Positions 9,287 through 52,430 of a stretch of 64,000 nucleotides of DNA are shown here, piece after piece. A program made the translations under genes and the position numbers. Positions within the stretch are counted from its first letter, which is position 1. Each line of letters opens with the position of its first letter. This stretch comes from an uncultured cyanobacterium (GTDB taxonomy: Bacteria; Cyanobacteriota; Cyanobacteriia; Cyanobacteriales; Nostocaceae): NCBI GenBank assembly GCA_963706595.1, contig OY970166.1, forward strand, positions 128,001-192,000, read 5' to 3'. The notes below the pieces were generated by a model. It ran no database searches. It saw nothing but the letters and a program-made list of their open reading frames with translations, and was not told the DNA's origin.

Positions 9287-10258
9287 ATGACCTCAGCCAC
9301 CTCCCTGTTTACCCCTGTGGAAGCAGACCTGCGACTATTAGCAGAAAACCTCAAGCAGCTAGTTGGAAATCGCCACCCCATCCTGTTTATGGCAGCCGAA
9401 CATCTATTCGGAGCTGGGGGAAAGCGTATTAGACCAGCAATTGTTCTGCTGATATCGCGGGCCACAATGTTAGAAAAAGACATAACACTGCGTCACCGCC
9501 GCCTAGCAGAAATCACCGAAATGATTCACACGGCAAGCTTAGTGCATGACGATGTGGTAGATGAATCACAAATGCGACGTGGTGTGGAGACTGTTCATAG
9601 TCTGTTCGGTAATCGCATTGCTGTCCTAGCAGGAGATTTTCTCTTCGCCCAATCGTCCTGGTATTTAGCCAACTTGGATAATTTGGAGGTGGTGAAACTA
9701 CTCTCAGAAGTGATTATGGATCTGGCTACCGGTGAAATTCAGCAAGGAATAAATTGTTTTGATAATGGCATCTCTATAGAGACTTACCTCAAAAAGAGCT
9801 ATTACAAAACAGCCTCGTTAATTGCCAACAGTTCCAAAGCAGCTGGGTTACTTAGTGACGTTTCCCACGAAACTGCCGAACATTTGTACGACTACGGCCG
9901 TCATCTAGGTCTAGCATTTCAGATTGTGGATGATATTTTAGATTTCACCAGTACAACAGATGCTTTGGGTAAACCAGCCGGATCTGATCTCAAAAGTGGT
10001 AATCTCACTGCACCCGTTTTATTTGCCTTAAAGGAAAATCCAGACCTGGAAGCCCTCATTGAACGGAAGTTTGACCAAGAAGGAGATTTAGAGCAAGCTC
10101 TAGAGCTGATTCAAGATAGTCAAGGTATCCAGCAAGCGAGACAATTAGCGGCTTACCATGCCAAGTTGGCAGTTGATCATCTTCAGGTGATCGCACCCTC
10201 CGAATCACGCGAGGCATTAATTAATATAGCTGACTACGTACTTAGTCGGCTTTATTAA
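9287..10258 (+). CDS. sds: Solanesyl diphosphate synthase
   Basis: GGKRIRP, LVHDDVVD (FARM) and FQIVDDILD (SARM). Confidence 0.93.
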   Translation: MTSATSLFTPVEADLRLLAENLKQLVGNRHPILFMAAEHLFGAGGKRIRPAIVLLISRATMLEKDITLRHRRLAEITEMIHTASLVHDDVVDESQMRRGVETVHSLFGNRIAVLAGDFLFAQSSWYLANLDNLEVVKLLSEVIMDLATGEIQQGINCFDNGISIETYLKKSYYKTASLIANSSKAAGLLSDVSHETAEHLYDYGRHLGLAFQIVDDILDFTSTTDALGKPAGSDLKSGNLTAPVLFALKENPDLEALIERKFDQEGDLEQALELIQDSQGIQQARQLAAYHAKLAVDHLQVIAPSESREALINIADYVLSRLY

Positions 10259-10290
10259 CAAATTTAGGATTTTTAAATTAATTTTTTCAG

Positions 10291-10340
10291 ATATTGCAGT
10301 TGGGATTTTAGATGTATCTAATGAGTCCCAACTGCAATAT
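10291..10340. terminator. Long hairpin between convergent genes (probable bidirectional terminator)
   Basis: 15-bp perfect inverted repeat atattgcagttggga / tcccaactgcaatat. Confidence 0.6.
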
Positions 10341-10344
10341 TTAT

Positions 10345-10819
10345 TTATGCAATATCTGGAGGTATTTGTTTACCAGATTGCTGTTTTTTTATCTGTTGCT
10401 GCAAGCGATTAAGCAATTCTACACGTTGGATTTCACAGGTATGAGTGGTCTGACCCGGCGTTTCCAAAAAAACTATACTATCTACGGGTTCTAATGCCAC
10501 CAATTGGAACAAAATATGGGTGACAGGAACAATTTTAGCTAGCATTTGAGGGTCAAGCCCAGCAGGTGAAGTTAGGGAGACATCCTGTATGGTAGGAAAA
10601 GCGTAGACAACACGCCTTTCCAATCCTGGATTTGCCCGATTGCTCAATGTAGTTAAAACCCAGCTCTCTTCTGAATTCTGAAGAACATAGTACCTGGGAA
10701 TGACGTAATCTTTTAGTGATCGAGATCAATACAGGAGCAATTGCTGAAATAAGATGTGGTGTTAAGCCATCGCGGGGTGCATTATTAATCAGCAATTGAA
10801 TTTGTGATTTTAAATCCAT
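10345..10819 (-). CDS. Hypothetical protein divergent from hetZ, split by a 1-nt frameshift at ~10693
   Basis: MDLKSQIQLLINNAPRDG...RLRHSQ joins YYVLQNSEESWVLTTLSNRANPG...PPDIA if one G of CAGGTAC is removed (157 aa). Confidence 0.7.
10544..10583 (+). promoter_or_regulatory. HetR recognition sequence of the hetZ promoter
   Basis: atttgaGGGTCAAGCCCAGCAggtgaagttagggagacat closely matches the HetR-bound sequence upstream of PCC 7120 hetZ as I recall it (GGG-N5-CCC core). A possible -10 (tatggt) lies at 10588. Confidence 0.75.
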
Positions 10820-39996: not shown

Positions 39997-41677
39997 ATGG
40001 TAGTCCGCAGCACGGCAGCACCCCCAACCCCGTGGTCGAGGAATTTAGCCGAGCCAAAAATCCATGAAAGCGCATTTGTACATCCGGCTTCCAACATTAT
40101 TGGAGATGTCCGGATAGGCGCAAATGTAATCGTCGCTCCGGGGACCTCGATTAGAGCGGATGAAGGTACACCTTTTTGTATTGGTGAAAATACTAATATT
40201 CAAGATGGTGTAGTAATTCATGGATTGGATCAAGGCCGAGTCATTGGTGATGACCAAAATCAATACTCGGTATGGGTGGGGAAAAATGTTTCTATTACCC
40301 ACATGGCACTGATTCATGGGCCGGCCTATGTAGGCGATGATGCCTTCATTGGTTTTCGTTCCACGGTATTTAACGCTAGAGTCGGTGCAGGCTGCGTCAT
40401 CATGATGCACGCTTTAATTAAAGATGTAGAAATTCCTCCAGGTAAGTATGTACCTTCAGGATCAATCATTACTAGTCAGCATCAAGCTGACCGTTTGCCA
40501 AATGCTGAAGTTGCGGATCAGCAGTTCGCTCATCATGTGGTTGGGATTAATCAGTCTTTAAGAACTGGTTATTTGTGTGCTGCGGATAGCAAATGTATTG
40601 CACCCATTCGGGATGAGATTGCTAAATCTTATACAAATACTGGTATTACTGTTTTAGAGCTAGAAAGGAGTAGTGAAGTGTCGAGCAATAGCTTGGGTGC
40701 AGAAATCGTAGAACAGGTACGTTATCTTTTAAATCAAGGATTTAAAATTGGTACTGAACACGTAGATGAAAGACGTTTCCGGACTGGTTGTTGGCAGAGT
40801 TGCCAGCCCATTCAACCTGGATCAATCGGTGAAGCGATCGCAGCTTTAGAAAGCTGTCTGAGAGAGCATAGCGGCGATTATGTCCGGTTGTTTGGCATTG
40901 ATAATGGTAGACGGCGCGTGTTAGAAACCATTATTCAACGCCCTGATGGTGTAGTGAGTGGGATTAAATCTAGCGGCTTTAAAGCACCGGCTAGTAATGG
41001 TAATGGTAACGGTAATGGTCGTTACAGGTACTAATGGCAATGGTCACGTTGCCAGCAGTGGCGCACTGAGTAGCGAAACCATAGACCAAATTCGTAGTTT
41101 GCTGTCAAGCGGTTACAAAATTGGTACAGAACACGTAGATGAACGCCGTTTTCGGACTGGTTCTTGGAACAGCTGCAAACCCATTGAATCAACTTCTGCA
41201 AATGAAGTGATTGCTGCCTTGGAAGAATGTATAGAATCGCATCAAGGCGACTATGTGCGTTTAATCGGTATTGATGCCAAAGCCAAACGGCGGGTTTTAG
41301 AAAGCATTATCCAAAGACCAAACGGACAAGTTGCCCCATCTGATACCAAAAAATCCTTTAGCAGCAGCAGTTATGGCACTGCTACAGCCACAGCCACAGC
41401 TACCGCTACCAGTACCAAATTGAGTACTGAAGCAGTAGACCAAATCCGGCAAATTTTGGCTGGTGGATATAAAGTGAGTGCTGAACACGTAGATCAAAGA
41501 CGGTTCCGTACAGGTTCTTGGGCTAGCTGTGGTCAAATTGACACCAGATCCGACAGAGAAGCGATCGCCGTCTTGGAAGGATACCTCGCTGAATATCCTG
41601 AAGAATATGTGCGTTTGATTGGTATCGACACCAAAGCCAAACGCCGCATCTTAGAGACGATTATCCAACGTCCTTAA
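39997..41677 (+). CDS. ccmM: Carboxysome assembly protein CcmM (gamma-CA + 3 RbcS-like domains), frameshifted at ~41027
   Basis: Gamma-CA hexapeptides, then three EHVD.RRFRTG.W repeats split over two frames. Removing one base gives 559 aa. Confidence 0.93.
40666..40680 (+). promoter_or_regulatory. Internal RBS + in-frame GTG for the short CcmM isoform
   Basis: AGGAG-tagtgaa-GTG, in frame with ccmM just before the first RbcS-like domain. Confidence 0.75.
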
Positions 41678-46466: not shown

Positions 46467-46572
46467 TAGTGCGGTTATCGGGTGAGTGAAATACAAGAAC
46501 CCCACCCCCAACCCCCTCCCCGCAAGCGAGGAGGGGGCTATGATGTAATTAATTCAAATGCATACCGCTATA
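46467..46572. repeat. MITE-like repeat with a CCCCCTCCCCGCAAGCGAGGAGGGGG hairpin
   Basis: GC-rich palindrome inside an element ending gcataccgctata. Confidence 0.55.
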
Positions 46573-46612
46573 GTCAAGAAATGAGTTGATATTAAGTTTG
46601 GAGAAACAATTT

Positions 46613-46843
46613 ATGTTAGGTCTAGACAATATTACATTTGACCCTGGCATTATGGGAGGACAAGCTTGCATTCGCGGGATGCGAATCCCGGTGTCTTTAG
46701 TGGTTAATTTAATAGCTAATGGGAAAATTGTAGAGGAAATTTTAGAAGAATATCCTGATTTAGAAGCAGAAGATATTCGTCAATCTTTATTGTATGCAGC
46801 GTGGTTGACTCAAGAACGGGTTTATCCCTTCAAAATTGCTTAA
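46613..46843 (+). CDS. DUF433 antitoxin (VapB45-like)
   Basis: ITFDPGIMGGQACIRGMRIPV...EILEEYPDLEAEDIRQSLLYAA. Confidence 0.9.
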   Translation: MLGLDNITFDPGIMGGQACIRGMRIPVSLVVNLIANGKIVEEILEEYPDLEAEDIRQSLLYAAWLTQERVYPFKIA

Positions 46844-46932: not shown

Positions 46933-47058
46933 TTTTATACTTTTGTCAATACCCTGATGCCAAAAAACTCAAATTAAGTTTGAGTAAAATTCAGCTTGAA
47001 AAAAGAGCATTATTTTCTATAATTTGGAAATATAATGATAGCGATCGCCACCATCAAA

Positions 47059-47100
47059 AAAGATCCCCGACTTCTTGAAGAAGTCGGGGATCTGAGCCTC
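47059..47100. repeat. 42-bp palindromic repeat, left copy
   Basis: aaagatccccgacttcttgaagaagtcggggatctgagcctc, 39/42 identical to 50997-51038. Confidence 0.9.
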
Positions 47101-47211
47101 TCGCTAGTGGCAAATCAGAGAGAATAGCTATATTTTTATGAGACAATAATATTAAAGTGATAACTTATAGCGCCTTTGCGTAAGGGTTAAAACATTTTAC
47201 AACTCTAGGCG

Positions 47212-47439
47212 TTATTCTGGCGATTGTGTAATATTCTCATCTTGGAATCCTGTAATTTTGGCATATAAACTGGCAACTGTTTCTTCAGCAAAGAGTTTTT
47301 CTTTAAGTTGCAAATAATCGCCTTCACTTAATTTACAGGTAGCCCAAAATTTCATTACCTTCGATGGTTCTAAGTGAGTGAGTAAAACCTGCATTACTTC
47401 TTGGATATTTTGTTGTTCGTTGATAACTTTAATTGTCAT
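47212..47439 (-). CDS. Small protein, putative antitoxin of the upstream PIN protein
   Basis: 75 aa, overlaps the PIN gene end by 11 nt, preceded by GAGG RBS. Confidence 0.7.
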   Translation of the reverse strand: MTIKVINEQQNIQEVMQVLLTHLEPSKVMKFWATCKLSEGDYLQLKEKLFAEETVASLYAKITGFQDENITQSPE

Positions 47440-47869
47440 TTCCTACCTCAAGAATAAAATTGTTTGGGTTGATTACTATGAGTGATAAATTATGACATCT
47501 GTTGATTAACCTCCTATCACAAGTGATAAGATAATCACTTTCAGAAGTCTCTGCACACGCTACATGAAGTGCATCAATAGGTTTAATTCCTTGTTGTTCT
47601 AGTTGTTCTGCTCTGTTTCTGATTTTTTCATCGACTAATACTCTGAATTTAGCTATTTCTAAGTATCTCGCCATTGATTGCTGATTGACACTAAAAGGGT
47701 TACGGCTATTTTCATATTCTAGAACTGAAGAGCTAACTAATTCTATTAATTTCGCTTCTACTGTTTGTAAAATTAAGATAACTGCTTGTGTTTCTAGAAA
47801 GATTTTTGGCTGTGTTTGGTCGTCAAATGGACGATTATAAATACTGGTATCTAGATAAACCCTGGTCAT
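47429..47869 (-). CDS. PIN-domain ribonuclease (VapC-like toxin)
   Basis: VYLDTS, IDALHVACAE and LITCDRRL acidic active-site motifs. Confidence 0.9.
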   Translation of the reverse strand: MTRVYLDTSIYNRPFDDQTQPKIFLETQAVILILQTVEAKLIELVSSSVLEYENSRNPFSVNQQSMARYLEIAKFRVLVDEKIRNRAEQLEQQGIKPIDALHVACAETSESDYLITCDRRLINRCHNLSLIVINPNNFILEVGNDN

Positions 47870-47970
47870 AAATATAGCTTTTTATAAAACTTTATCTTGA
47901 AAAAATCGCTTGCGTATGTATATTTTAAATCGTGCGATCTCTTGTACAATACCATCAATAATTTTTATAC

Positions 47971-49587
47971 TCAATTTTGTTGCCGGCAAGCTTCCCAATT
48001 TTTACGAACAGTAATAGTATTGGGATGATTGTCTCCCAGCAGGCGTTTACACAGTTCTAAAGCTTGGAGAAACAGGGGTTCGGCTTGGTCGTAACGTCCT
48101 TGGGAAAAGTAGAGATATGCCAAGTTGTTGAGGCTGGTGGCGACATCGGGATGATTCTCACCTAGCAGGCGTTTTCTCAGTTCTAAAGCTTGGAGTAACA
48201 GTGATTCGGCTTGGTCGTACCGTCCTTGGTCAGAGTAGAGATTTGCCAAGTTGTTGAGGCTGGTGGCGACATCGGGATGATTGTCTCCCAGTAGGCGTTT
48301 TCTTAGTTCTAAAGCTTGGAGTAACAGGGGTTCGGCTTGGTCGTACCGTCCTTGGGATTCGTACAATGATGCCAAGTTGTTGAGGCTTTGAGCGACATCG
48401 GGATGATTATCTCCCAGCAGGCGTTGACAGAGTTCTAAAGCTTGAAGATACAGGGGTTCGGCTTGGTCGTACAGTCCTTGGGAATCGTACAGTGATGCCA
48501 AGTTGTGGAGGCTGGAGGCGACATCAGGATGATTGTCTCCCAGCAGGCGTTTTCTCAGTTCTAAAGCTTGGAGAAACAGGGGTTCGGCTTGGTCGTACAG
48601 TCCTTGGGAATAGTAGAGGAATGCCAAGTTGTTGAGGCTTTGAGCAACATGGGGATGATCTTCTCCCAGCAGGCGTTTTCTGAGTTCTAAAGCCTGGAGA
48701 AACAGGGGTTCGGCTTGGTCGTACCGTCCTTGGGAATCGTAGAGTAATGCCAAGTTGTTGAGGCTGCTGGGTAAGTCTTTCTCTAAACCTAACTGTTTTT
48801 GCAGTTCCACGGCCTTGCTTAGATACTCAATTGCTAATTCTTGTTCTTTTTGGTAATCCTGACACTCACCCCGTTGCAGCCTTTTTATATAAATATTGCC
48901 TAAGCTAAAGTACAAAGTTGCTAAACTTGTATCTTTTTTACTTTGCTGTTCTGCATCTTGAATAAACTTTTTTAAATCTTCTATAGGTAATAAATAAGGA
49001 TTATCATCATCAAAATCAGGAATTTCATGAGAATTAAAAGCAAAACGAATTGGCTCTAATTCTTTACCAGAAATACTATTTTTCCTTCTTGAGACAAATC
49101 GAAAAACACCATTGCGCCAACTCCAAAAATCTGGTGCTTTATTTATCAAATTAATTAATATTTGGTTAGTCACCCACAAAACAATCGCAAAAGGAAATTC
49201 TCTTAATGCTTCTCTAGTCCACTGTAAGTAACCGAAAAAGATATCTTGTTCTGAACGCTCCTTCCCCAGTGGAAGAAAATAAAGCTGTTCTGCACCAGTC
49301 ACAGTAATTACTGCTGGTTTATGTTGACGCAAATACTCTTCATTTTTTACCAATTGAGAAATAGCAGCCGTCAAACTCGGTTCACCCCTCGCCAATGTCA
49401 CCCTATAAGTAGGAAACAGAGGTTGCAATTCCGCTTCATATTGAGCAATGATTTCATCACGAAAACTAGCATCATCACAAACAGCAATTAACAAATTTAA
49501 TCGATGTGCTTTAGCTTCGATGGAAACAACTAATTCATCATAAACATCTCTATGGTCGTCATTTACTAATAAATCTTCATTCAGCAT
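47971..49587 (-). CDS. TPR protein with a degenerate NTPase-like N-terminal domain and six 42-aa TPR units
   Basis: N-terminus lacks a Walker A (LLIAVCDD...LQWTREALREFPFAIVLWV...APDFWSWR). C-terminus has SLNNLA.LY..QGRYDQAEPL repeats. Confidence 0.88.
   Translation of the reverse strand: MLNEDLLVNDDHRDVYDELVVSIEAKAHRLNLLIAVCDDASFRDEIIAQYEAELQPLFPTYRVTLARGEPSLTAAISQLVKNEEYLRQHKPAVITVTGAEQLYFLPLGKERSEQDIFFGYLQWTREALREFPFAIVLWVTNQILINLINKAPDFWSWRNGVFRFVSRRKNSISGKELEPIRFAFNSHEIPDFDDDNPYLLPIEDLKKFIQDAEQQSKKDTSLATLYFSLGNIYIKRLQRGECQDYQKEQELAIEYLSKAVELQKQLGLEKDLPSSLNNLALLYDSQGRYDQAEPLFLQALELRKRLLGEDHPHVAQSLNNLAFLYYSQGLYDQAEPLFLQALELRKRLLGDNHPDVASSLHNLASLYDSQGLYDQAEPLYLQALELCQRLLGDNHPDVAQSLNNLASLYESQGRYDQAEPLLLQALELRKRLLGDNHPDVATSLNNLANLYSDQGRYDQAESLLLQALELRKRLLGENHPDVATSLNNLAYLYFSQGRYDQAEPLFLQALELCKRLLGDNHPNTITVRKNWEACRQQN
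48016..48771 (-). repeat. Six tandem 126-bp near-identical coding repeats
   Basis: Recurring ggttcggcttggtcgtac...gccaagttgttgaggct at a 126-nt period. Confidence 0.92.
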
Positions 49588-50869
49588 TAATTAACCTCCT
49601 ACGCCTCAAATTTTCTACAAGAATGGGGTGAACATCATACCAAGTTTCATCATTACGATATTCTAAAATATATAGCCCATGCAGTAATTCCAAAAATTCT
49701 TGCTGCTTTACGTCATCAGGCTCGAAATTATTATAAGTAGTTTTCAATATCTCAAAATCATCCCTTCCTAAACGGATAGAAAGGTCATTACGAATTTGCT
49801 TAATTGCTTGTTCTATAATTTGGTCATCAATTACAATTTTTTCTCCTGGCTTTTGCCTGATGAGTCGCAAACAAATACGACAACATACATTAGCCAGACG
49901 AATCAACTCCCTAAGAACTCCACCACTATAAACAACAATCTTCTCTGCGGCTGACCTGTCTATTAATTCATTAGCAATTCGTTTTTGTAACATTCCACAT
50001 AAAATATCTGCCGCTTCCCTTCGAGGCTCGGCATCAGGTAAGCGATTATTCCCCTTTCCAAAAATTTTGATCACAGGCATTACCAAAGTTTGGTAGTTGG
50101 TTTCTGCGTCAATAAGTGGCCAGAGAAAAGTGTCACACATGACCGCAATAGGGATAGTGTAGATAATCCGAAAATTAGGTTGAAACAGAGCTTTAATATT
50201 ATCTCGATAAATATCGTTAACTCTTACCAAATCTAGTTTATCTAAATCATCAATGATAACTATGCTCTCTTTTTGAGTATGAAGTTTAATCAGTGCAGCA
50301 ATTTCATTAATCCGAGCCACTAAATCGGATATTTTGCGTTCAAATTCCTGTGTTATTTCCTCCCTAACTTTTGCATTAGCTTTTAATTGAGCTTTCAGGA
50401 AAGTGAGCAAATTAAAACCTACCTCAAGTCCGCCCTCTACCTCTTCCTCTATAGTCCTAGTGCGATGTGCAAACCACCCATAAAGTTGATCTTTAGTAGT
50501 TTGAGGAATCTTGACTTGGCGTGCTTCTGCCTCATACATTAAATTAAGAGCAATAGCAAATAAAATATTGACATGATTTACAGCCGACATTTCAATAGTG
50601 TCAGCAATAGAGAATAAAACTACAAAATATTTGTCCTCAACTTGTCTACTAAACTCAGCTAATAGAGACGACTTTCCACAGCCCCGATGTCCAGTAAATA
50701 CAAACTTGCCATCACCATTAGGACTGTCTTCAACTAATTGACGTAAATCTGCTATTAAATCATCACCATAATCTACTCGAAATTGCTCCATTTCTCTCTC
50801 ATTCATCAATGGAAATAATTCGAGATTACTGTAAGCTTCCTGAAAAGATTTTAATAATTCGTTAGACAT
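49577..50869 (-). CDS. P-loop ATPase (STAND/KAP-like)
   Basis: Walker A GHRGCGKS, Walker B IVIIDDLD, SGGVLRELIRL, C-terminal WYDVHP. Overlaps the TPR gene start by 11 nt. Confidence 0.88.
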   Translation of the reverse strand: MSNELLKSFQEAYSNLELFPLMNEREMEQFRVDYGDDLIADLRQLVEDSPNGDGKFVFTGHRGCGKSSLLAEFSRQVEDKYFVVLFSIADTIEMSAVNHVNILFAIALNLMYEAEARQVKIPQTTKDQLYGWFAHRTRTIEEEVEGGLEVGFNLLTFLKAQLKANAKVREEITQEFERKISDLVARINEIAALIKLHTQKESIVIIDDLDKLDLVRVNDIYRDNIKALFQPNFRIIYTIPIAVMCDTFLWPLIDAETNYQTLVMPVIKIFGKGNNRLPDAEPRREAADILCGMLQKRIANELIDRSAAEKIVVYSGGVLRELIRLANVCCRICLRLIRQKPGEKIVIDDQIIEQAIKQIRNDLSIRLGRDDFEILKTTYNNFEPDDVKQQEFLELLHGLYILEYRNDETWYDVHPILVENLRRRRLINAE

Positions 50870-50996
50870 GGCGTATAACACAATAACATTTTTACTACTT
50901 ATTTATATTATGAGCTATCCAGCCCCAACTCAAAAAACTTTCCTCCATCTCTCTGCGCCTCTACGTGAAAAAAATACAGCACCCGCCAATTTTGAT

Positions 50997-51038
50997 AAAG
51001 ATCCCCGACTTCTTCAAGAAGTCGGGGATTTGAGACTC
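50997..51038. repeat. 42-bp palindromic repeat, right copy
   Basis: aaagatccccgacttcttcaagaagtcggggatttgagactc. Confidence 0.9.
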
Positions 51039-51050
51039 CCGGTGTTGGCA

Positions 51051-52430
51051 CTAAACGTTAACGGGTATACTCGCTCTTGTGACCTGAACTGTGGGTATCA
51101 TTTGCATCCCCGATGGTGCGGCTAAGGTGAGACCACGGCGCACGGGATACACAGGACGCTTGTTAACCAGAGATAATTGAAATTCTGACAAAATTGTGGC
51201 TAAAGCAATTTTCATTTCATACTGAGCAAAAGCCAAGCCTATACAACGCCGATTTCCACCGCCAAAGGGTAAGTATTCATAAGGGGAAAATTGCTTTTCT
51301 AAAAAGCGTTCTGGTTTGAATTGCTGTGACTGTGGGTAAACTTCTTCACGATGATGGGCTAAATATATACTGGGAATTATGATAGTTCCTACTGGCAATT
51401 GATAGCCCATAATTTCTACTGGGGTTTTCACAACTCTGGGAAATCCATTCCCCACAATTGGATAAATTCTCAACGTTTCTTGGCAAACTGCTGTTAAATA
51501 TGGCAATTTAGCAATGCTACTCGGTTCAGCATTCACACCCAGGGTTTCTAATTCCCGTTGTAATTTCTCTCGTACTTCTGGTAATTGTCCCAACCAGTAA
51601 AAAGCCCATGTTAATGCAGAAGCTGTAGTTTCATGTCCTGCAACTAACATTGTCATTAATTCATCGCGTAATTCAACATCTGACATTCCCTCGCCATCGT
51701 CATAACGAGCCGAAATCAATAAACTGAGAATATCTTGGCGATGTTGTCCAGATTCCGCCCGACGTTCTTTAATTAGACTATAAATTACTTGATCGATTTG
51801 CTGCAATAGCCGCACAACTCGCCCCCAAGGACTCCACGCACCTAAATCTTTTTGCATAAAACTAAAAAAGAAGGCGCTGGACATTAAAGGGGAACCCATG
51901 AAGTCTAGCAGGGATGTGAGTAACCGCCCCAATTCTCGAAAAACTGGCCCTTCATCCACACCAAATACTACTCGTAAAATCACGCGCATAGTGATTTCTT
52001 GCATTGAGGCGCGAATATTAAAAGGTTTGCCAATTGTCCATTCGTTACTAACTTGCTGTGTAATTTTGCGGATAGTTTCACCGTAAGCCCGCATCCTTTC
52101 CCCATGAAACGGTGGTGTTAATAATTGCCGTTGGCGCTGATGGCGATCGCCATCTAATATAATTACAGAATTATCGCCCAGCAAAAATCCTAAACCCCCG
52201 CCTCCTCCACCAGATCGAAAACAATTAACATTACTACTAAAAATCTGTTCTAGTGCTTGAGGATGGCTAAAATATACAATGTGCTTATCCCCTCGATTCC
52301 AAATGGTGAAGTTGTCACCATAAACTTGGGCAAAATCTTCTACATATTTCACCGGCTGAGTGATAAATTTAACCATCCGCAGATAGCGTGGTAATTTGGG
52401 ACCATCAGGTAAGTTGTAAGTTACTGTCAT
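51051..52430 (-). CDS. Cytochrome P450 (CYP110-like)
   Basis: AGHETT, ETLR, PERF and heme motif FGGGNRRCIG. Confidence 0.95.
   Translation of the reverse strand: MTVTYNLPDGPKLPRYLRMVKFITQPVKYVEDFAQVYGDNFTIWNRGDKHIVYFSHPQALEQIFSSNVNCFRSGGGGGGLGFLLGDNSVIILDGDRHQRQRQLLTPPFHGERMRAYGETIRKITQQVSNEWTIGKPFNIRASMQEITMRVILRVVFGVDEGPVFRELGRLLTSLLDFMGSPLMSSAFFFSFMQKDLGAWSPWGRVVRLLQQIDQVIYSLIKERRAESGQHRQDILSLLISARYDDGEGMSDVELRDELMTMLVAGHETTASALTWAFYWLGQLPEVREKLQRELETLGVNAEPSSIAKLPYLTAVCQETLRIYPIVGNGFPRVVKTPVEIMGYQLPVGTIIIPSIYLAHHREEVYPQSQQFKPERFLEKQFSPYEYLPFGGGNRRCIGLAFAQYEMKIALATILSEFQLSLVNKRPVYPVRRGLTLAAPSGMQMIPTVQVTRASIPVNV

Follow-up and report, generated by a model that had tools for sequence, protein, structure and literature searches.

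A two-gene module of an active AAA+ ATPase and a degenerate AAA+/TPR partner with a chimeric TPR gene at a variable site shared with Bell-like/NB-ARC-TPR pairs

The 64,000-nt stretch of cyanobacterial DNA analyzed here (the window) harbors a two-gene module at 47971-50869 that consists of an active AAA+ ATPase and a partner protein in which a degenerate AAA+ core is followed by a helical linker and six TPR repeats of 42 residues (Table 1). Two observations are newly made here: the module alternates at its genomic slot with a Bell-like/NB-ARC(-TPR) gene pair, and its TPR gene is, judging from sequence comparison, a chimera that received its 5' part from another genus and its 3' cap from the resident NLR gene. 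The reading that we favor, and for which we consider the chances even, is that of an NLR-like sensor for non-self that docks on and switches on a separate ATPase. According to the sequence-only reading, the two genes form a single repeat-bounded cassette together with a PIN-domain RNase and a 75-aa protein. The four co-oriented minus-strand ORFs (47212 to 50869) and both 11-nt overlaps, between ATPase and partner and between the PIN and 75-aa ORFs, are indeed present; the single cassette is not, as the repeats are REP palindromes found genome-wide, the PIN pair is free-standing and the core comprises two genes. The variable site carries the PIN pair and the REPs as passengers; on its upstream side lies a gene for a presumed cytochrome P450-like protein, so named by its sequence and not by a domain scan. 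A promoter scan stayed at chance level (16 found, 12.0 +/- 3.6 expected).

Table 1. Features of the module and its surroundings (positions in the window)
Feature	Position	Strand	Remarks
ATPase gene	49577..50869	-	430 aa
Partner gene (degenerate AAA+ and TPR)	47971..49587	-	538 aa; chimeric gene, judged from sequence
Degenerate AAA+ core of partner	49084..49587	-	residues 1 to ~168; P-loop absent
TPR array of partner	48022..48777	-	six 126-nt repeats
C-terminal cap and 3' flank of partner	47936..48021	-	from resident NB-ARC-TPR gene
Upstream junction zone	50975..50994	none	homology limits to resident versus donor-type loci
Upstream REP palindrome	50997..51038 (core 50999-51031)	none	just beyond P450 stop
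Downstream REP palindrome	47059..47100 (core 47061-47093)	none	terminator-like on minus strand
PIN-domain RNase	47429..47869	-	146 aa; PF01850, 37.2 bits, cut-off 23.6
PIN partner ORF, putative antitoxin	47212..47439	-	75 aa; without Pfam family
DUF433 gene, outside finding	46586..46843	+	toxin-antitoxin debris of variable site
Presumed cytochrome P450-like gene	51051..52430	-	conserved upstream anchor of variable site

The Walker A (GHRGCGKS) and Walker B (IVIIDDLD) motifs of the 430-aa ATPase are both intact, as had been claimed. The P-loop AAA+ core is accompanied by a helical insertion, a helical lid with the motif GGVLRE and a C-terminal winged-helix-like domain, of which core, lid and winged-helix-like domain characterize the STAND/Orc1-Cdc6 clade; an RF motif is absent at the arginine-finger position. 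The predicted model (pLDDT 89.4) resembles 2qen (Z 17.2, rmsd 4.2, 302 residues aligned), 2qby (Z 16.5) and TnsC 7mbw (Z 16.4) in structure comparison, with matches covering residues 6-424, and points to an active AAA+ protein of the Orc1/Cdc6/STAND type with an Orc1/Cdc6/TnsC-like fold. A PDB sequence search with the ATPase profile gave no match at E<=0.01. The fold check on both large proteins, based on predicted structures, also bears out the earlier proposal that the partner's N-terminus is NTPase-like without a P-loop: the model of this N-domain (pLDDT 83.8) is an AAA+ alpha/beta core that aligns with TnsC 7rzy (Z 11.6, rmsd 3.7, 162 residues), and all 50 listed structural matches are AAA+ or STAND chains as judged by their titles. 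No Pfam family was found for the N-domain in a profile search, its profile-profile comparison with the ATPase alignments yielded nothing (probability 0.9%), a PDB sequence search gave chance matches only, and in the ESM Atlas all clusters returned were unnamed and cyanobacterial.

The partner gene lies directly downstream of 114 of 127 ATPase genes (seven of the others run into the edge of their locus, six are unpaired), overlapping with 65 of these 114. In the host family the module is multicopy, with the ATPase present in all 24 genomes sampled; the N-domain populates 3,581 clusters at 50% identity. The pair ranks with the most frequent P-loop modules left unstudied in cyanobacteria with larger genomes, and it lacks a domain model. 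It often resides at conserved sites (ndhJ, terC) among mostly housekeeping neighbors, with toxin-antitoxin-type genes at three of 41 loci that have a downstream ORF; no effector gene is conserved beside it among 68 downstream ORFs. Relatives were not found in viral contigs or phage records, and six plasmid matches are distant (22-24% identity). A match to an already named system did not materialize, as no PADLOC model fits the locus and only weak partial matches were obtained. A literature search, mostly outside subscription papers, found no paper on the family, which may be listed among the 589 STAND clades in the supplements of 10.64898/2026.01.04.697583.

The site occupied by the module in the window carries a Bell-like helical gene and an NB-ARC(-TPR) gene in six of ten congeners. 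At a second site the ATPase pair is found in seven genomes and a helical/NB-ARC-type pair in G004. In the resident pairs the NB-ARC-TPR gene is preceded by a short helical gene whose product has an acidic second residue and a first helix that is hydrophobic; they are called Bell-like here by these gene features and by Atlas likeness, not by a Bell profile. The Atlas look-alikes of the helical proteins lie at 0.91-0.94, with 18-22% of the cluster members carrying HetE-N. In the second-site pair of G004 (L059), an amyloid-like motif shared by the helical C-terminus and the NLR N-terminus was detected by BLAST (19 of 33 identities, E 8e-10); it was not found in L049, the one first-site pair among the two of seven pairs tested.

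From 48149 to 50920 the window is 85% identical to L034, while its cap and 3' flank are 87-92% identical to seven congener loci with resident-type genes; 17 other TPR genes gave no alignment through the cap region. Since the repeats of L034 and L035 are likewise 85-86% alike to those of the window, and repeats of different genes of the genus 82-89% alike, identity of the TPR repeats alone does not prove a graft, which is discriminated only by the cap and 3' flank. The TPR array is the probable crossover zone. At the other end, homology to resident alleles stops at about 50994-50996 and homology to donor-type loci extends to 50974; this joint would be situated about 20 nt past the REP. A lineage related to the ndhJ-linked Nostoc/Anabaena copies was probably the source of the ATPase gene and of the 5' segment of its partner; both would have entered a resident Bell-like/NB-ARC-TPR pair by recombination within its TPR array, a route that we infer from the observed mosaic. 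The graft put the pair in place of both the helical gene and the NB-ARC part.

Could this graft be a neutral by-product of TPR recombination in a naturally transformable host, with a module that may be idle? The likeness of repeats across genes of the genus fits such a view, as do the broken or deleted alleles at both sites (G003, G005, G010). We regard it as quite improbable, given that both frames are intact in the window, that pN/pS of the ATPase is about 0.18 against its four closest relatives, and that a ~98% identical arrangement recurs in an independent metagenome; no RNA data set was listed as a holder.

The six TPR repeats of the window have high internal identity. Positions 1, 4, 11, 14, 18 and 33 of the 42-residue unit are variable, and pN exceeds the overall pS (0.28) at six of 42 positions (43 repeats); similar hypervariable positions are described for the TPRs of fungal NLRs (PMC4986451). 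A Walker A motif occurs further inside the partner in 53 of the 150 best representatives, and the internal NTPase was identified as nSTAND1 or NB-ARC in L002, L168 and L135. The N-domain therefore often takes the place that an effector has at the N-terminus of a complete NLR, and the separate ATPase looks more like a recruited output than like a missing NOD. What stands of the earlier claim of a heteromeric NLR-like system is the tightly linked unit of an ATPase and a dead-NTPase/TPR protein with variable repeats; the idea of a motor and a sensor divided between two chains has to be modified in view of the many internal NTPases. The window's own partner has neither an internal NTPase nor an NB-ARC domain. 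This would suit an immune sensor in which the ATPase acts as NOD scaffold only and an effector encoded elsewhere is recruited to the ring, as would the replacement of NB-ARC and helical gene in the graft and the hetero-rings deploying fused effectors that are predicted for nSTAND2 systems (PMC8195603). The frequency of internal NTPase motifs and the lack of a conserved adjoining effector gene make such a scaffold decidedly unlikely.

The arginine pattern would fit a contact between the two proteins. R125 is invariant in all 109 partners. R158, just ahead of strand 5 of the N-domain, takes the finger position as read from secondary-structure order rather than from a complex. All 17 ATPases of the GH[IV]G type keep the RF motif and have partners without R158; the other 92 partners all possess R158, with RF missing from 90 of the corresponding ATPases. 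This complementarity across the 109 pairs corresponds to one clade split and hence to one event, a single phylogenetic contrast.

In the reading that we favor, the variable face of the TPR array would bind a ligand, probably a phage protein, whereupon the dead AAA+ N-domain may be freed or clustered. It would then dock on the ATPase as a neighboring AAA+ subunit and supply R158 and R125 in trans, a predicted contact to which fold and residue pattern conform. In the most speculative step, the ATPase oligomer itself might be the output, arresting the cell by draining ATP or by clamping DNA or protein via the winged helix; no enzymatic effector is encoded in the two-gene module. Slot exchange and chimera formation with Bell-like/NB-ARC-TPR pairs tie the family to NLR biology, and the retained end of the resident repeat array hints at a function in immunity. 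At the same time, near-identical TPR repeats are prone to recombine irrespective of the upstream sequence, so that the graft need not imply equal function. A bolder version, which we hold to be unlikely, treats the dead AAA+ domain as a widespread class of NLR adaptor, the ATPase as an executioner completed by the trans arginine, and Bell/amyloid engines as interchangeable with it through recombination on shared hypervariable TPR arrays. The adaptor would head TPR, NB-ARC-TPR or nSTAND1-WD40 sensors, like amyloid motifs and death domains do elsewhere. An ATPase acting as output would represent a new adaptor and effector logic in NLR immunity, and engine swapping, if true, a combinatorial receptor repertoire in filamentous cyanobacteria.

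A near-universal, multicopy family that is often at conserved sites would also fit a regulatory role. The pair might be a split MalT/AfsR-like regulator with TPRs that sense a peptide or protein of the cell itself and an ATPase that binds DNA via its winged helix and controls genes, for instance those of development or stress. Beyond distribution and housekeeping neighbors, this is in accord with the Orc1/Cdc6/TnsC-like DNA-binding fold devoid of an effector domain and with the interspersion of defense and non-defense STAND clades (10.64898/2026.01.04.697583). It is at odds with the variable presence, the decay and the replacement seen at two sites in congeners, with the hypervariable repeat positions and with the exchange with Bell-like/NB-ARC-TPR pairs, and we judge it unlikely.

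Among known systems, the nSTAND2 two-gene counter-invader operons (Kaur et al., 2021, PMC8195603), which are predictions only, come close: an active STAND gene with wHTH is followed by an inactive STAND gene with TPRs, and a hetero-oligomer is predicted. The two-gene operon of active and inactive STAND-type NTPase is found here as well. The statement that no named system has this layout holds in part: the family is not nSTAND2 by Pfam, but the grammar of active and inactive STAND operons had been predicted. PF20702 (nSTAND2) matched neither protein at E<=1, none of 31 N-domains (E<=0.1) and is not among 25 families listed for 30 ATPases; the sole match in G000 lies away from the locus. Unlike nSTAND2, the inactive domain here lacks lid, winged helix and HEPN/GT4 effector (HEPN/GT4 do not rank among the five best families for the C-terminal parts of 31 partners), and the arginine finger, reported for both nSTAND2 subunits (PMC8195603), appears to be in one or the other. 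The rows consulted of the nSTAND2 table are proteobacterial, and the family's motifs were not found in the 12 searched supplementary files of PMC8195603.

Bell/BASS and NB-ARC-TPR pairs (Dyrka et al., 10.1101/2020.01.06.895854), of which Bab/Agp is a tested amyloid-signaling antiphage pair (10.1101/2024.11.07.622273), share the genomic slot, the 42-aa TPR family and the order of a separate upstream gene and a repeat protein with N-terminal docking element; the window's gene even has its 3' end from an NLR gene of this kind. They differ in that their upstream gene encodes a helical pore-former instead of an ATPase, their docking element is an amyloid motif instead of a dead AAA+ fold, and the partner here has no NB-ARC. 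The locus thereby shows upstream modules exchanged on a shared repeat array; a natural chimera with reciprocal exchange is a kind of evidence absent from neighborhood surveys. BrxC/BrxB of BREX and iSTAND (MoxR-vWA) likewise join an Orc/Cdc6-clade ATPase to a compact inactive STAND domain without Walker motifs and helical bundle (PMC12839542; PMC7159879). In contrast to these, methylase, PglZ, MoxR and vWA are missing and the inactive domain is conserved and fused to TPR/WD40 arrays; Pfam BrxB and iSTAND have no match in the family, PglX/PglZ or MoxR/vWA do not occur in the window region, and one BrxC/D gene is found among the 68 downstream ORFs. With Avs/AVAST and fungal NB-ARC-TPR NLRs the module shares a STAND-type ATPase fold and a TPR sensor, and with the fungal proteins conserved 42-aa repeats with few hypervariable positions (PMC4986451). 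Those are single chains of effector, active NTPase and repeat sensor, whereas the NTPase here forms a separate chain and an effector is not recognizable; no Avs model reaches its cut-off at the locus.

On sequence grounds the PIN pair is an independent, toxin-first toxin-antitoxin-like pair and a bystander. The acidic residues D7, E53, D99 and D118 are kept in all 24 aligned PINs and the small overlapping partner follows in 17 of 24 relatives, as expected for type II PIN toxin-antitoxin genes; in G006 a 93% identical copy of the 75-aa ORF occupies the same site with the PIN absent. A mobile cassette of four genes with the PIN pair as effector of the ATPase/TPR sensor is scarcely credible. In its favor are the shared orientation of the four genes, the terminator-like REP after the last gene and metagenome run X1, in which a single contig carries the PIN pair together with the TPR 3' end. 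Nevertheless, none of 24 PIN-relative loci adjoins an ATPase pair, this PIN family is at none of the nine closest ATPase loci (two of them with little or no downstream DNA), congeners hold HicAB, AbrB-PIN or DUF433-DUF5615 genes in place of the PIN pair, and the flanking repeats occur throughout the genome. Co-occurrence thus largely rejects both the cassette and the role assigned to the PIN pair.

The two 42-bp repeats, which match at 39 of 42 bases, are two of 85 genome-wide REP palindromes and ordinary bystanders. Their 33-nt core (85 copies at <=4 mismatches, 32 exact) is intergenic and enriched in convergent gaps, and four copies surround a gene for a REP-associated tyrosine transposase (NF047646; 82.2 bits against a cut-off of 80), as in REP/RAYT systems; a published REP family was not matched. 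The upstream copy also exists in G001, G005 and G009 with different cargo and the downstream copy in G001, G005 and G006, where the module is absent; in G001 and G005 both enclose other cargo, and in G003, G004, G007, G008 and G010 no copy was detected at the site. Target-site duplications or att-type repeats are rejected by copy number, by lack of element specificity and by the other cargo in congeners. As block ends, the repeats are real and the upstream one lies at the edge of imported DNA, but the downstream one marks no module boundary. The block had further been described as AT-rich and free of HIP1. HIP1 is indeed absent from 47049 to 52142 and the GC content of the block is 38.2% (35.4% without repeats), yet neither is exceptional: HIP1 is missing in 6.8% of random 3,980-nt windows too, and the GC value falls at the 12th percentile. 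Both are rejected as proof of recent import, a claim carried by the tree and the mosaic identities. As four homologous pairs in their own genomes also lie 4-5 points of GC under their flanks, low GC is a trait of the family.

The four minus-strand open reading frames of the block, with their two 11-nt overlaps, exist as the sequence-only reading had claimed (see table). Two of them form the module considered here, an ATPase gene followed by a partner gene. The ATPase model (pLDDT 89.4) best matches PAB2304 (Z 17.2, rmsd 4.2, 302 aligned) and compares with Orc1/Cdc6 at Z 16.5 and with TnsC at Z 16.4, plant NLRs and Apaf-1-type proteins ranking next. Matches to the ATPase profile occur in 53 of 201 genomes of the phylum, in 24/24 of the host family and in 0/73 of one large family. 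Among 127 distinct ATPases, from loci picked by similarity and with near-copies included, 114 have an N-domain gene downstream, seven are truncated where the locus ends and six are unpaired. A 738-aa protein with TPRs (L003:5073-7289) matches the N-domain weakly (tblastn E 1e-7); no ATPase gene adjoins it, and it is possibly an orphan partner.

Coordinates of genes and frames (window positions unless a locus is given)
Feature	Position	Remarks
ATPase, 430 aa	49577-50869	minus strand
Partner, 538 aa	47971-49587	minus strand
PIN protein, 146 aa	47429-47869	minus strand
Small ORF, 75 aa	47212-47439	minus strand
Third pair of the window's genome (G000)	L002:2517-9175	partner of N-domain, nSTAND1 and WD40, 1,760 aa; REP copy between the two genes
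N-domain fused to ECF sigma-70, no repeats	L126:3557-4684	downstream of ATPase; sigma-70 confirmed by Pfam
REP-associated tyrosine transposase gene	L086:1068-1972 (G000:C1:328867-329771)	3 of 4 flanking palindromes in a 101-nt tandem
Bell-like stop, then in-frame NB-ARC-TPR frame	L043:3000-3700 (G001)
Same	L045:5800-6340 (G004)
Same	L046:5860-6370 (G005)
Same	L050:8140-8680 (G009)

No Pfam match was found to the first ~168 residues of the partner. Their predicted fold is an AAA+ alpha/beta core (pLDDT 83.8) with TnsC as best match (Z 11.6, rmsd 3.7, 162 aligned), bearing out the proposed NTPase-like fold devoid of a P-loop; lid and winged helix are likewise absent from the model. All 50 structure matches listed are proteins which, by their titles, we take to be AAA+/STAND. 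The N-domain profile gathers 3,581 clusters at 50% identity, and R125 is kept in all 109 scorable partners (five truncated ones were left out). In the model R158 follows the last helix of the core and precedes strand 5, which is where AAA+ proteins carry their arginine finger. An RF motif is retained in the corresponding stretch of all 17 GH[IV]G-type ATPases, whose partners lack R158; the other 92 partners all possess R158, and RF is absent from 90 of their ATPases. Since the 17 ATPases form one clade, this complementarity is a single contrast and not a statistical result. R158 and R125 are candidates for an arginine provided in trans to the ATPase.

Folds, coupling, residue patterns, mosaic structure and slot exchange are established for the module. 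The reading we prefer, evenly poised in our judgement between right and wrong, is an NLR-like sensor with a separately encoded ATPase, in which binding of a ligand to the TPR array would release the dead AAA+ domain, which would then dock on the ATPase with its trans arginine, ATPase-driven arrest being the outcome. In the partner the linker is followed by six 126-nt TPR repeats. Over 43 repeats from nine genes of the genus most unit positions are nearly fixed, and pN exceeds the overall pS of 0.28 (pairwise counts, no formal test) at positions 1, 4, 11, 14, 18 and 33. The TPRs of fungal NLRs are mostly 42 aa long and internally conserved, their variation lying on the concave face (PMC4986451, available sections). 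Because a Walker A motif lies past residue 170 in 53 of the 150 best N-domain representatives, with internal nSTAND1 (L002, L168) or NB-ARC (L135) confirmed by Pfam in some, the N-domain often stands where a complete NLR has its effector, at the N-terminus. The sigma-70 fusion at L126 speaks for a regulatory output in one relative or more. That the module is a non-immune regulator is a reading that we regard as fairly unlikely.

Residues D7, E53, D99 and D118 of the PIN protein are kept in 24/24 aligned sequences. PIN relatives are present in 23 of 151 genomes, the window's genome counted, and a small partner gene lies directly downstream at 17 of 24 other PIN loci. At these 24 loci no ATPase or N-domain profile match was found within 1.5 kb, which contradicts the proposal that the PIN pair is the effector of the ATPase/TPR sensor and renders a four-gene PIN system very improbable. 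A 98-aa fragment near one PIN relative (L073) gave a weak blastp match that the profile did not confirm. The window's PIN family is also absent at all nine closest ATPase loci (L039 ends within the partner, L035 less than 1 kb downstream). At site 1, the variable slot beside the P450 gene that holds the window's module, congeners carry HicAB, AbrB-PIN or DUF433-DUF5615 genes in place of the PIN pair, and G006 has the 75-aa gene and no PIN. The PIN pair is a passenger of the site. Genes adjoining ATPase pairs are mostly housekeeping genes (68 downstream ORFs surveyed): an ORF follows 41 of 51 complete partners, and toxin-antitoxin-type genes occur at 3 of the 41. That the module is an immune scaffold with its effector unlinked in the genome appears quite unlikely to us.

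The two 42-bp repeats of the block, identical at 39 of 42 bases, had been read as cassette bounds. They contain a 33-nt palindrome with 85 genome copies (≤4 mismatches), 84 outside called ORFs and 32 in convergent gaps (606 of 3,307 gaps in the background), and both copies at site 1 recur in G001 and G005, two congeners in which they enclose other cargo; they are REPs and not element ends. A REP-associated tyrosine transposase gene passing the NCBIfam cut-off is surrounded by four copies, and its locus is the likely source of all 85. One REP copy adjoins each of the two other ATPase pairs of the genome. A separate ~100-nt repeat upstream of a DUF433 gene (46471-46572) has many copies in the genome and its congeners. 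With 4,324 HIP1 sites the host is a HIP1-rich cyanobacterium; the block indeed lacks HIP1, which is also true of 6.8% of equally long windows drawn at random. Its AT-richness is real (38.2% GC, 12th percentile) but shared by four homologous pairs lying 4-5 points under their own flanks. The sequence-only reading holds in part as observation and in part as interpretation.

Judging from the alignments, the partner gene of the window is a mosaic. The closest named loci are Nostoc and Anabaena records: an Anabaena subtropica locus shares 85% identity with 48149-50920 and a Nostoc parmelioides locus 86% with 48205-50934, as against 70% for the genome's own paralog. In a quick tree the ATPase groups with ndhJ-linked, donor-type copies, away from those of the congeners (100% SH-aLRT). 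The last repeat, cap and 3' flank are 87-92% identical to seven resident-type congener loci (one a 1.1-kb contig of unplaced position); for 17 other TPR genes the alignment stops short of the cap, which is single-copy in the window's genome. Upstream, resident homology stops 3-4 nt beyond the REP and donor-type homology starts ~20 nt further. This would fit homologous recombination in the TPR array, with the opposite end joined illegitimately, a concept taken from the available part of PMC3240628. One seawater metagenome contains 48737-50962 with 47 differences and 47250-48081 with 18 on two contigs, none of its contigs spanning the whole stretch, and carries two base differences giving the residents' C-terminal ending. 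We consider it improbable that the graft is a neutral mosaic. In several ndhJ-linked loci tandem 63-nt HIP1-containing arrays straight after the TPR gene were noted (L034:9941-10234, L035:10181-10612, L040:9947-10270); in L041 a duplicated ndhJ 3' half begins at a HIP1 site directly past the TPR gene (10134-10447), suggesting an insertion with one homologous and one HIP1 end.

None of the 10 congeners has an ATPase pair adjoining the P450 gene. Six (G001, G004, G005, G006, G008, G009) harbor a gene for a 143-153-aa helical protein, frameshifted in G001, and then an NB-ARC gene with TPRs of the window's TPR family, mostly lost in G005. G010 and G003 retain a helical-gene remnant, site 1 is empty in G007, and in G002 the P450 gene is interrupted. 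At site 2, beside terC, an ATPase pair resides in seven genomes (G000, G001, G002, G003, G007, G008, G009) and a broken one in G010; the slot is empty in G005, rearranged in G006 and occupied in G004 by a helical gene and NB-ARC-TPR sharing a motif (19/33 identical), which the same BLAST test did not find in the site-1 pair of G008 (L049). The resident helical proteins start like Bell domains as described in the accessible part of 10.1101/2020.01.06.895854, and HetE-N is found in 18-22% of members of their Atlas look-alikes. In four congeners the reading frame runs on past the Bell-like stop codon into NB-ARC-TPR, and a conserved linker of 22 residues precedes the first GTG; read-through could yield a free helical protein plus an NLR fusion, and terms for stop read-through were not found in the main text of the BASS paper. 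The empty G003 allele keeps the first Bell-like codons up to a HIP1 site (L044:2376-2575), consistent with a deletion between HIP1 sites. In G009 the P450 3' end together with the REP, 108 nt in all, occurs a second time beyond the helical/NB-ARC-TPR pair (L050:5632-5739), so that a direct repeat encloses this allele. Another Bell-like/NB-ARC pair resides in the window's genome (G000:C1:1528721-1530435, tblastn).

It had been stated that no characterised system with this layout could be named. The module is indeed no member of nSTAND2, but the available part of PMC8195603 predicts a comparable two-gene nSTAND2 operon, the nearest layout described. Unlike nSTAND2, the window locus has no PF20702 match and the inactive chain lacks a winged helix and HEPN/GT4; a search through 12 of the 13 supplementary files of that paper, one covered in part, turned up none of the module's motifs. 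BrxB/BrxC and iSTAND systems are analogues (PMC12839542, PMC7159879, sections available). The family is not described in the accessible portions of PMC10907252, PMC10853773, PMC3733652, 10.64898/2026.10.19.760177, 10.64898/2026.01.04.697583 (section 4) or 10.1101/2024.11.07.622273, and a literature search yielded no publication that treats it; supplements on bioRxiv, outside this search, may bear on the result.

Elsewhere in the window, a presumably ccmM-like carboxysome gene (39997-41677) is split between two frames, with ORFs at 39997-41034 and 40958-41677 that overlap; this is a frameshift or an assembly error.
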